From: a virus | Lineage: Monodnaviria; Loebvirae; Hofneiviricota; Faserviricetes; Tubulavirales | Length of the DNA stretch: 8,117 bases | IMG/VR virus record: IMGVR_UViG_2703718788_000001 | Strand: one strand, 5' to 3' | Part shown: positions 3,685-5,121 of the stretch, in pieces | Layout of the letters: each line of letters begins with the position of its first letter | Position numbering within the stretch: the stretch's first letter is position 1 | Position numbers and translations under genes: made by a program | Notes under the pieces: generated by a model | Databases searched by the model: none | What the model saw: only the letters and a program-made list of their open reading frames with translations | What the model was told of the DNA's origin: nothing

Positions 3685-5121
3685 TTGGCATATATATTTA
3701 TTTTCCTTGTTGCTGTTTTTTCATTTAATTCTGCATATGCAGCTTCAACGACAGAATTTCTTGGTGATGCAGGTTCCGGTACCCGTGTTGCAAGGGCCGG
3801 TGTAGCTCCACCCTGTACTACTGGATATGCATCCTGCTCAGGTGATACGTTTTATTGTACTACGTCTTACAGCGATACTAATCATCTTTTGGGTATGCCA
3901 TTTTTACTGGTTACAGGTAACTGGATCTCTTATAAGTCTTACCATTTTGAGGATGGTGTTAAGGTTTATTCTCAGTGTAAGGATAGCTTTTACGGTCAAT
4001 ATTTTGGTGCTTCGTATTCAGCTAAACCCACGGAAGAGGTTTGTTTATCCCGTCCTGAGCTTAGTAATGTTTCTTTGTCAGGTGTTTATAAGGATGATAA
4101 AGGGAATAAATATGTCACCATTCATGGATGCATTTATGAGGCAACGGGTGTTGCTATTATTTGTCCCGATGGTACAGATTCTTGTACCGCTACCTGGAAA
4201 CCTGTAACTGTTGATCCGGCTTATTCTGATAAAGAAGATACAGAAGATAAAGGTGATAGCGGAGATACTGATGATAAAGGGAATAACGGTAATACTGACG
4301 GTGGTGATAATTCCGGCGGTTCGTCCGGTGGCAGCACTTCTGGCGGTTCCTCCGGCGGCAGTACTTCCGGCGGTTCTTCCGGTGGCAGTACTTCCGGCGG
4401 TTCATCTGGTGGCAGTACTTCCGGCGGTTCGTCCGGCGGCAGCACTTCCGGCGGTTCGTCCGGTGGCAGCACTTCTGGCGGTTCATCCGGTGGTAGCACT
4501 TCTGGCGGTTCATCCGGTGGCAGCACTTCCGGCGGTTCATCCGGTGGCAGCACTTCCGGCGGTTCCTCCGGTGGCAGCACTTCCGGCGGTTCCTCCGGTG
4601 GCAGTACTTCCGGTGGTTCATCCAGTGGCAGCACTTCCGGTGATGATGATGGCTGGCTTGGTGATATTCTTGGCTGGTTGCAGAGAATCTGGAGTTCAGT
4701 GAATGATCTGAACAGTGTATTTTCTTTTTCTCAGACTGATGTAAATAATGCACTGAATACTTTTGATGACCAGTTGAAAGATATTGTCAATAGTGATGAT
4801 GAAGATTCAACAGATGATTATGATTCTTTAATTTCTGGATTTATTGATAAGTTACCGAAGGAGTGGTTGTTTATTGATTTTGATAAGTTATTTTTCCCTT
4901 CTCAACAACAACGGCAAATAGGTGCGCAACCTATTGAGGTTAATTTTTCATTTTCTCTTCCTGTGATTGGGGTTGTGCATTTTTCAATTGACACAACCGA
5001 TTTTTCATCAGCATATGATTTGTTGTTGAGGCCTGTTCTTGAATATTTTATTTATGTATTGACTATTTTTCGGCTTTATTTTGTTTATCGTCGTGCACTG
5101 ATGCGTCATGCTGAGGTCTAG
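3685..5121 (+). CDS. Minor coat / adsorption protein (pIII-like): Cys-rich N-terminal domains, Gly/Ser-rich repeat linker, C-terminal hydrophobic anchor; probable TTG start
   Basis: Position after gVIII and its terminator; N-terminal signal peptide; multiple Cys; (GGSSGGSTS)n linker comparable to the Gly-rich linkers of M13 pIII; hydrophobic C-terminus; GGGGGTGA upstream of TTG 3685. Confidence 0.8.
   Translation: MAYIFIFLVAVFSFNSAYAASTTEFLGDAGSGTRVARAGVAPPCTTGYASCSGDTFYCTTSYSDTNHLLGMPFLLVTGNWISYKSYHFEDGVKVYSQCKDSFYGQYFGASYSAKPTEEVCLSRPELSNVSLSGVYKDDKGNKYVTIHGCIYEATGVAIICPDGTDSCTATWKPVTVDPAYSDKEDTEDKGDSGDTDDKGNNGNTDGGDNSGGSSGGSTSGGSSGGSTSGGSSGGSTSGGSSGGSTSGGSSGGSTSGGSSGGSTSGGSSGGSTSGGSSGGSTSGGSSGGSTSGGSSGGSTSGGSSGGSTSGGSSSGSTSGDDDGWLGDILGWLQRIWSSVNDLNSVFSFSQTDVNNALNTFDDQLKDIVNSDDEDSTDDYDSLISGFIDKLPKEWLFIDFDKLFFPSQQQRQIGAQPIEVNFSFSLPVIGVVHFSIDTTDFSSAYDLLLRPVLEYFIYVLTIFRLYFVYRRALMRHAEV
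4315..4638 (+). repeat. Tandem repeat, 27-bp unit GGCGGTTCNTCCGGNGGCAGNACTTCN x 12 (last copy degenerate), in frame within the pIII-like gene, encoding (GGSSGGSTS)n
   Basis: Unit boundaries counted directly: 4315-4341, 4342-4368, and so on to 4612-4638; variation mostly at synonymous third positions. Confidence 0.95.

Follow-up and report, generated by a model that had tools for sequence, protein, structure and literature searches.

A polymorphic coding minisatellite probably forms the core of a long glycine/serine-rich tether in the adsorption protein of a dif-integrating Escherichia coli filamentous phage

Introduction

Gly/Ser-rich linkers built from short repeats are a textbook feature of the g3p adsorption proteins of the filamentous phages Ff, IKe, and IF1. 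The present analysis concerns a tandem array of 27-nt units inside a g3p-like gene, found in a stretch of viral DNA of 8,117 nucleotides (IMG/VR record IMGVR_UViG_2703718788_000001, referred to herein as the window), which is the entire NCBI contig LOFY01000056.1 of the E. coli assembly GCA_001608235.1. We propose that the array is, very probably, a coding minisatellite that supplies the core (108 of ~146 residues) of a single long Gly/Ser-rich tether in the g3p of a dif-integrating E. coli filamentous phage. A linker of this kind is already known, and what is new is the member, an uncharacterised E. coli family of dif-integrating inoviruses with another domain order, a single unusually long tether, and an allelic series of the variable number of tandem repeats (VNTR) type. 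The current understanding of pIII, as the protein is called in Ff, is not overturned.

In the structure of f1 determined by cryo-electron microscopy, the flexible glycine-rich linkers of pIII are invisible in the map, and the distal linker has a reach of up to 14.8 nm, which was argued to be enough for the C domain to reach TolQRA while N1-N2 remain bound (PMC10175506). The protein described here resembles that of the Ff phages (fd/f1/M13) in its predicted TolA-binding domain of the N1 type and in the Gly/Ser-rich, probably flexible sequence that leads from there to the C-domain, which in Ff lies at the virion tip (PMC10175506), and the gene likewise sits between the major-coat gene and g6/g1. 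The Ff linkers are also made of short peptide repeats, EGGGS/GGGS, as seen in the alignment with 2g3p. The differences from Ff are nevertheless considerable. Where Ff has two shorter linkers, the window protein has one very long tether of ~146 residues, several times the f1 distal linker, the residue count of which is not stated in PMC10175506. The TolA-binding domain comes second, after an unrelated β domain of ~95 residues and with no linker between the two, and the unit is of 9 residues (GGSSGGSTS), encoded by DNA repeats that are long and homogeneous enough to form a polymorphic minisatellite. The C-domain is without detectable sequence similarity to that of Ff, and the replication protein (Rep) is a gpA/RstA-like endonuclease and not Ff gII.

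IKe and IF1, which are enterobacterial inoviruses with Gly-rich linkers, are closest to residues 114-176 both in sequence (4eo1) and in fold, but the similarity does not extend beyond this domain of ~60 residues, and the backbone in the window is of the dif-integrating kind with an RstA-like Rep. In that backbone the closest described systems are CTXphi, CUS-1 (E. coli O18:K1:H7), and YpfPhi (Yersinia pestis), the latter two compared by description, with which the window shares a size of ~8 kb, a small divergent regulator-like open reading frame (ORF), and an RstA-like Rep. The lifestyle of these three phages includes integration at dif, tandem copies, and imperfect dif sites at the junctions between copies (PMC4266046). 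They differ from the window backbone in that the latter is also found at another chromosomal location, where it is joined to a transposase of the IS110 family.

The Repeat Array

The sequence-only reading of this DNA had counted twelve in-frame copies of a 27-bp repeat at 4315-4638, and the count is confirmed both by Tandem Repeats Finder (TRF) and by translation of the units. TRF returned a single strong array at 4311-4640 with a period of 27, 12.2 copies, 91% matches, no indels, and a score of 520, and in the frame of the ORF at 3685-5121 the 12 units fill 4315-4638 exactly, eleven of them reading GGSSGGSTS and the last GGSSSGSTS. The 27-nt unit is made up of two sub-repeats, one of 12 nt (GGSS) and one of 15 nt (GGSTS). 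The identity at a lag of 27 nt is 0.92 in the array, whereas 348 other 324-nt segments of the same sequence average 0.27 and do not exceed 0.39, and the repetitiveness of the array is therefore far above chance. It had further been claimed that the copies differ mainly at synonymous sites, and this is the case. Only 8 of the 27 columns of the unit are variable, seven of these eight are third codon positions (hypergeometric P=3e-4), and the units deviate from their consensus 20 times, 19 of these changes being synonymous where the expected share is 31% (binomial P=3e-9). The units are constrained at the amino-acid level.

Weaker 27-nt periodicity is present upstream of the array at 4238-4298 (2.3 copies, 79%, by TRF), where the encoded sequence is rich in D, K, and N. 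The units there (DTEDKGDSG / DTDDKGNNG / NTDGGDNSG) are older and decayed and adjoin the homogeneous array directly on its 5' side, and in two of the related loci, L001 and L004, degenerate Gly/Ser units (GNLSGGGVS, GGSSGGDNS) stand in place of part of this decayed stretch. It seems that the core of the array undergoes homogenisation and its 5' edge decay, with length changes taking place at its 3' edge.

Three further ORFs overlap the array (Table 1), and these were regarded in the sequence-only reading as spurious products of the repeat. We find the same: all three are present in the ORF list, they have no PHROG match, and their limits track those of the array. For one of them, however, the roles might be reversed, such that the antisense gene 4221-4634(-), encoding (EVLPPDEPP)n, is the real product of the array. 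This frame is open across the whole array and has only 3 distinct peptides in 11 units, and it is called as a gene in the contig's own GenBank record, while a 187-aa equivalent, WP_062865521.1, is called by the Prokaryotic Genome Annotation Pipeline (PGAP) in strain 377323_2f. Against this, it is the sole antisense frame in which the wobble positions coincide with the wobble positions of the sense frame, and therefore synonymous changes in the sense frame are mostly silent or conservative in it and its conservation is automatic. Moreover, this ORF begins at a GTG that belongs to the repeat. Its frame is likewise free of stops over the other unit types, giving LPPDEPPEE in L003 and LPPPE in L005, as Gly GGN and Ser TCN codons would lead one to expect. 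Strain 377323_2f retains the full sense ORF (528 aa), the product of which is a known protein present on 102 contigs. A scan of 4000-5000 for promoters and terminators gave no signal stronger than expected from shuffles and none suited to an antisense gene. The antisense gene is rejected on the grounds that its frame is wobble-coincident and open over every type of Gly/Ser unit, and we attach very little probability to it.

The array might instead act at the level of DNA or RNA, either as a structural element in single-stranded DNA (ssDNA), such as a packaging signal or an origin, or as a regulatory RNA. When 4300-4650 is folded as ssDNA, the minimum free energy is -76.8 kcal/mol, compared with -58.4 kcal/mol for dinucleotide shuffles (z=-5.2, with 0 of 100 shuffles as stable), and the array is GC-rich (0.66, against 0.47 for the remainder of the window). 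The extra pairing follows from the codons, however, with TCC-GGN generating TCCGG palindromes in every unit, and the centroid structure consists of small local hairpins and not of a single element. In addition, the substitution pattern follows the protein frame, and sister phages carry other units or only 4 short units, which a packaging or origin element would not tolerate. A scan of the window against Rfam at the gathering thresholds found nothing. The stable folding is probably a by-product of codon composition through the TCC-GGN palindromes, and an element acting in the DNA or RNA, rejected for this reason, is hardly to be expected. The units are better understood, we propose, by what they encode, namely the core of a tether in g3p.

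Copy Number Variation among Relatives

Change in copy number had been anticipated from the sequence, with a comparison across related prophages as the proposed check. That comparison has now been run, and near-identical phages carry from ~5 to 17.6 units with breakpoints that lie inside units. Proteins in which the N- and C-terminal flanks are ~100% identical to those in the window have 5 to 13 recognisable units in a total of 430-487 aa, and a 17.6-unit allele of 528 aa occurs on 102 contigs, one complete genome included, to give a series of protein lengths from 430 to 528 aa on identical flanks. Three phages that are 99.6% identical outside the array, namely the window, L010 (one prophage, located at dif), and L002/L006 (a tandem pair), contain 12, 13, and 17.6 units, respectively. 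The first 21 sub-units are common to the window, L010, and L002 base for base and the differences are confined to the 3' end of the array, the L010 allele having one additional 27-nt unit. The array in the window corresponds, with no mismatches, to the first 305 nt and the last 73 nt of the 489-nt array of 377323_2f, and the window allele and the 528-aa allele differ by one clean in-frame indel of 150 nt (50 aa). Its length does not correspond to a whole number of 27-nt units and is explained by misalignment of 12-nt with 15-nt sub-repeats.

More distant members of the group have arrays of other units. The sister phage L003 has (GGSSGGGSS)n with a 27-nt period, and sister phages of the L005 type have (GGG[S/N]S)n with a 15-nt period, in which the length of the Gly/Ser run varies between 16 and 113 aa, for the most part by increments of 5 aa. 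In L012 an unrelated g3p-like protein of 537 aa (11194-12807) has an array of its own, (GTGSGT)n/(GT)n, at 12235-12436 with an 18-nt unit present in 11.2 copies. Repeat-encoded tethers recur independently in this group of E. coli inoviruses. L012 shares its Rep and g5-like module (95% identity) with the window phage and has another structural module.

Copy number differs among complete genomes as well (L001/L004, L002/L006, L003, L005, and type D alleles on contigs of >4.9 Mb), and the differences are therefore not solely an artefact of short reads. The array has head-to-tail, in-frame units of at least 10 nt and copy-number alleles in near-identical genomes, and is by these properties a coding minisatellite, or VNTR. 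In-frame tandem units with copy-number alleles in near-identical genomes are also seen in the coding minisatellites of surface proteins and adhesins; here the variation is at one end and the breakpoints lie inside units. The difference from those systems is that the repeat is part of a phage virion protein, where it has no antigenic or binding character and forms a featureless tether. Our literature search, which also covered CUS-1 PuvA, found no paper that describes copy-number polymorphism in the pIII linkers of inoviruses, which does not imply its absence from the literature as a whole.

Length polymorphism at such a high frequency is typical of contingency repeats, and the array could in principle be a phase-variation locus that switches g3p on and off. 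However, the lengths of the units and sub-units are all multiples of 3 (27, 12, and 15 nt, with 15 and 18 nt in relatives), and every allele that was inspected, that with the 150-nt indel included, stays in frame. Phase variation is rejected, since with all units being multiples of 3 it is length that is modulated and not expression, and we regard it as the least probable of the explanations considered.

The possibility that the array is a site of assembly collapse was also raised by the sequence-only reading. One part of this is upheld, in that the array is a frequent point of contig breakage, while collapse of the common allele in a k-mer graph is excluded, at realistic k, for the array in the window. 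In the database clusters around the 478-aa protein, 'partial' proteins from 1-4.5 kb contigs predominate, and among the 42 listed members at least 13 end and at least 8 start inside the array (at least 21 of the 42), at varying positions. The breaks may be due to the repeat itself, or to phages, co-resident or in tandem, with the array and the C-domain in common and different sequence upstream. As a separate matter, the stable ssDNA folding of the array might contribute to coverage drops and contig breaks at this position.

It has to be asked, then, whether the copy number in the window is itself an artefact, a longer array such as the 17.6-unit allele having collapsed to 12 units. Removing 150 nt from the common allele yields the window array exactly, and the 12-unit, 478-aa allele is a singleton, found on the 8117-bp contig that is the window, compared with 102 contigs for the 528-aa allele. 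Short-read assemblers do break in the array, as the fragment proteins listed above show, many of the short alleles come from short-read assemblies, and a mismatch-tolerant overlap assembler could have produced the window array from reads of the long allele. On the other hand, because of the synonymous heterogeneity among the units the longest exact internal repeat in the window is only 39 nt, that in the long allele is 47 nt, and a k of at least 49 resolves both. Thirteen 21-mers (4585-4597) and three 15-mers of the window, located at the junction of the indel, do not occur in the long allele, and therefore no de Bruijn path through long-allele reads yields the window array. There are other short alleles that are found repeatedly, on several independent contigs (P0008, for instance, on 6 of up to 83 kb), the complete genomes also vary, and the contig breaks may reflect the co-resident phages mentioned above instead of the repeat. 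We consider it unlikely that the window array is an artefact, and this explanation, the antisense gene, the DNA or RNA element, and phase variation are all less likely than a tether encoded by a polymorphic array.

Architecture of the Adsorption Protein

The 478-aa product of the gene is identical to WP_141070743.1, and its start is as called in the GenBank and RefSeq relatives. It matches the Pfam family Phage_Coat_A (PF05357) with E=2e-7 and 31 bits against a cutoff of 20.8, and its PHROG matches are to families of attachment proteins and virion structural proteins. The gene is located between the major-coat gene and the genes for g6, g1 (Zot), and g4 (secretin). With gene order, Pfam, PHROG, and the PDB sequence and fold matches described below all in agreement with the earlier description of a pIII-like adsorption protein, that label is justified, and we infer adsorption as the function.

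A model of the protein was built with AlphaFold2 (AF2) from an alignment of 27 homologues, and it is confident for residues 21-180, with a predicted local distance difference test score (pLDDT) of 75-91. Foldseek found no fold match in the PDB for residues 21-100, the N-terminal β domain, and this region is swapped wholesale in the type C and type D sister phages. Residues 114-176 are a predicted TolA-binding domain of the N1 type. In a phmmer search of the PDB they match 4eo1_A (IKe) with E=1.8e-10 and 1fgp (fd N1) with 4.5e-8, as well as 2g3p, 1g3p, 1tol, and 2x9a, and Foldseek matches the same residues to 2x9a/2x9b (IF1 g3p with TolA), 4eo1 (IKe), and 1g3p, with template modelling scores to the target of 0.77-0.85 and root-mean-square deviations of 1.1-1.5 Å. 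Full-length f1 pIII (8b3o) aligns only to residues 116-175 of the query.

The tether of ~146 aa comprises residues 177-322 and is rich in Gly, Ser, and Asp. Over residues 183-324, which include the acidic stretch and the array, the AF2 pLDDT is ~25 and no secondary structure is predicted. The model thereby supports a flexible, disordered tether, and the flexible linker of the sequence-only reading is borne out at the level of prediction. Beyond the tether, the sequence and the AF2 model place a hydrophobic helix at 438-477 that is followed by RRALMRHAEV. The C-domain is 84-100% conserved among phages with unrelated N-domains, and its position and hydrophobicity suggest that it serves as an anchor in the virion cap and the inner membrane. 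The g3p architecture as predicted from sequence and model is a signal peptide, a novel domain, a TolA-binding domain, the ~146-aa tether, and a C-domain with an anchor (Table 1).

Table 1. Features of the repeat-bearing gene and of its surroundings (positions in the window; a slash marks the predicted end of the signal peptide)
Feature	Position	Strand	Basis or remark
g3p/pIII-type adsorption (attachment) protein gene, 478 aa, TTG start	3685..5121	+	ORF list, Pfam, PHROG, exact database match P0007
Predicted signal peptide (MAYIFIFLVAVFSFNSAYA/A)	3685..3741	+	Hydrophobic N-terminus ending A-x-A (AYA/A), read by eye; AF2 helix 2-17
N-terminal β-rich domain, ~aa 21-100	3745..3984	+	AF2 pLDDT 78-88, strands 22-95; candidate primary-receptor-binding domain
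Predicted TolA-binding (N1-type) domain, aa 114-176	4024..4212	+	phmmer vs PDB; Foldseek
Acidic degenerate proximal linker (DPAYSDKEDTEDKGDSGDTDDKGNNGNTDGGDNS)	4213..4314	+	Decayed 27-nt periodicity; TRF; AF2 pLDDT <50 from residue 183
27-nt repeat array	4315..4638	+	12 in-frame units, aa 211-318; polymorphic core of tether
150-nt indel junction, 7 nt GTGGCAG	4598..4604	+	Between diagnostic single-nucleotide polymorphisms; hybrid sub-unit b5 = b10 joined to b14
C-terminal domain, aa 319-478	4639..5118	+	Predicted helical, low-confidence AF2 monomer; hydrophobic helix ~aa 438-477 (DNA ~4996-5115)
Putative exchangeable host-recognition cassette	3664..4314	+	5' break just upstream of g3p start; 3' break at/in array (blastn)
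Antisense ORF, 137 aa, (EVLPPDEPP)n	4221..4634	-	Compositional by-product; annotated as gene in public records
Antisense ORF, 187 aa, spurious	4190..4753	-	11 different peptides across 11 units (KCCHWMNHR...)
+1-frame ORF, 163 aa, spurious	4211..4702	+	9 different peptides across 11 units (AVRPVAALL...)
Small divergent ORF, 60 aa	296-478	-	phrog_2503, function-unassigned family
gpA/RstA-like replication endonuclease (Rep)	572/593-2593		
Major-coat-like protein	3383-3625		phrog_1646
g6-like protein	5124-5486		phrog_1944
Zot/g1 ATPase	5490-6701		
g4 secretin	6811-8040		

Exchange of the N-Terminal Region

In blastn comparisons the window is 96.5% identical to the type C phage L007 up to position 3663, has no identity to it from 3664 to ~4299, and is again 96.9% identical from inside the array to 8050. 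In the comparison with the type D phage L005, the identity is 94.4% up to 3663 and resumes at 4648, directly after the array. From the breaks at 3663 and at the array in these two phages we conclude that the array is the 3' edge of what is, judged by sequence, an exchangeable host-recognition cassette. The GGSSGGSTS array with a 97-100% identical C-domain is found behind three N-terminal regions, which are the window type, an 88%-identical variant, and the unrelated type C (for example, P0113), and the type C arrays reuse several exact sub-unit variants of the window array.

The type C g3p (L007 6001-7377; P0113 and its relatives P0100 and P0105-P0116) has an N-region of ~230 aa on the same array and C-domain, and it occurs on contigs of both E. 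coli and E. marmotae. Its N-terminal region has no match to Phage_Coat_A or to the TolA-binding domain and no PHROG match, and it may represent a different receptor or co-receptor strategy.

A more far-reaching idea, which we put forward as tentative and on balance doubtful, is that the array is a device for evolvability, a fast-mutating length dial by which slippage in single-strand or rolling-circle replication would tune the reach of the heads to one envelope or receptor or another, and at the same time, as a shared homologous stretch, a crossover point for swaps of the cassette between co-resident or tandem prophages. If true, this would account for three unrelated or diverged N-modules standing on one array and C-domain, and for the two places, 3663 and the array, at which identity breaks off.

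Proposed Role of the Tether

We propose that the array and the remainder of the tether would let the five receptor-binding heads move freely off the tip of the virion, by analogy with Ff pIII, so that they could contact the primary receptor first and periplasmic TolA afterwards. The C-domain would meanwhile stay in the cap and would insert into the inner membrane at a later point, again as in Ff pIII. Gains and losses of units may arise by replication slippage or by unequal recombination between units, events that are likely in rolling-circle or single-strand replication or between tandem or co-resident copies of the prophage. Selection would tolerate a wide range of lengths while keeping the composition small, polar, and free of stops, and the common repeat DNA could serve as a site of homologous crossover at which N-terminal modules are swapped.

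Several points count against this proposal, in addition to the singleton status of the window allele and the behavior of the assemblers that are described above. The role of the tether in this phage rests on sequence and prediction, the disorder coming from the alignment of 27 sequences. Similarity of the C-domain to the Ff pIII C-domain was not detected, residues 319-478 being without a Pfam match and in a part of the model that is of low confidence. Recombination inside the repeat DNA, lastly, is something we infer from the positions of the breakpoints.

What these data describe is a widespread E. coli inovirus family with a modular adsorption protein, which consists of a putative exchangeable cassette, a length-polymorphic tether, and a conserved C-domain, and they suggest that host-range modules are exchanged at the linker. 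The alleles form a natural series in which the effect of tether length on filamentous-phage infection can be followed. For assembly, the consequence is that short-read contigs of E. coli often end in the array, so that copy numbers taken from such assemblies need caution. For annotation, public records label the gene 'hypothetical protein', and in at least one RefSeq genome the intact g3p is mis-split because of the repeat. In NZ_CP039404.1 as annotated by RefSeq/PGAP (L002 6001-7590; L006 8606-9982 and 16858-18303), the intact 528-aa g3p (P0122) is divided into an N-terminal pseudogene, the antisense WP_062865521.1, and WP_021559720.1, a fragment from the C-terminus. One copy of the tandem pair in this genome has split Rep and Zot genes as well.

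The Host Genome of the Array

The gene layout of the window is that of a canonical inovirus (Table 1). The two ends of the contig, 1-12 and 8106-8117, are identical (TGCGCATAATGT) and correspond to the XerC arm of E. coli dif. When the ends are joined they form AGTGCGCATAA-TGTGACACGCG-TTATGTTGAAA, which resembles dif imperfectly and has a central region that is long, the junction running to approximately position 31 of the window. Searches of the unjoined window for dif, either exact or with 3 mismatches, did not find it, and the dif-like site arises only on end-joining. A true dif (1 mismatch) is present at the right end of integrated copies (L010 10447-10474, L002 10571-10598, and L003 10327-10354), and in strain 377323_2f two tandem copies of the prophage lie next to hipBA. 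From the shared XerC-arm ends and the dif sites of the integrated relatives, it follows that the window is one complete, unit-length genome (~8.1 kb) of an inovirus that integrates by XerCD at dif.

Related prophage sequence is present in 117 of 5426 complete E. coli genomes, and a protein search in which the linker was removed from the query returned 178 relatives, nearly all in E. coli. Among 50,697 phage records there was no match to the whole window by megablast and none to g3p by tblastn at E<=1e-5, and the closest deposited phages have an amino-acid identity of at most 35% in g1 and at most 30% in Rep. A scan of 185,579 species-representative genomes for the g3p C-domain gave 149 pattern matches and 0 confirmed relatives. 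In the data searched, the family appears to be confined to E. coli and E. marmotae.

The small ORF at 296-478(-) occupies the place of the RstR-like repressors in CTXphi and YpfPhi. At 2624-3049, where the ssDNA-binding protein (g5) would be expected, lies an ORF of 141 aa, the only match of which is to phrog_30648 (E=2e-97), a family to which no function is assigned.

A second chromosomal site for the same backbone lies between hcxB and ybiB, where an IS110-family transposase gene abuts Rep and there is no dif (L001/L004 1933-4909; L007-L009; L012 7027-9998), which suggests an alternative, transposase-mediated route of integration in the same inovirus family. The prophages of a further set of matches, H48-H51 (for example, NZ_CP157093.1 2487916-2491531), share the left end and the Rep module with the window, with ~90% identity over 1-3007. 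These matches overlie a gene annotated as 'cell envelope integrity TolA C-terminal domain-containing protein', and a phage-borne TolA domain III could perhaps act in superinfection exclusion against TolA-dependent inoviruses.

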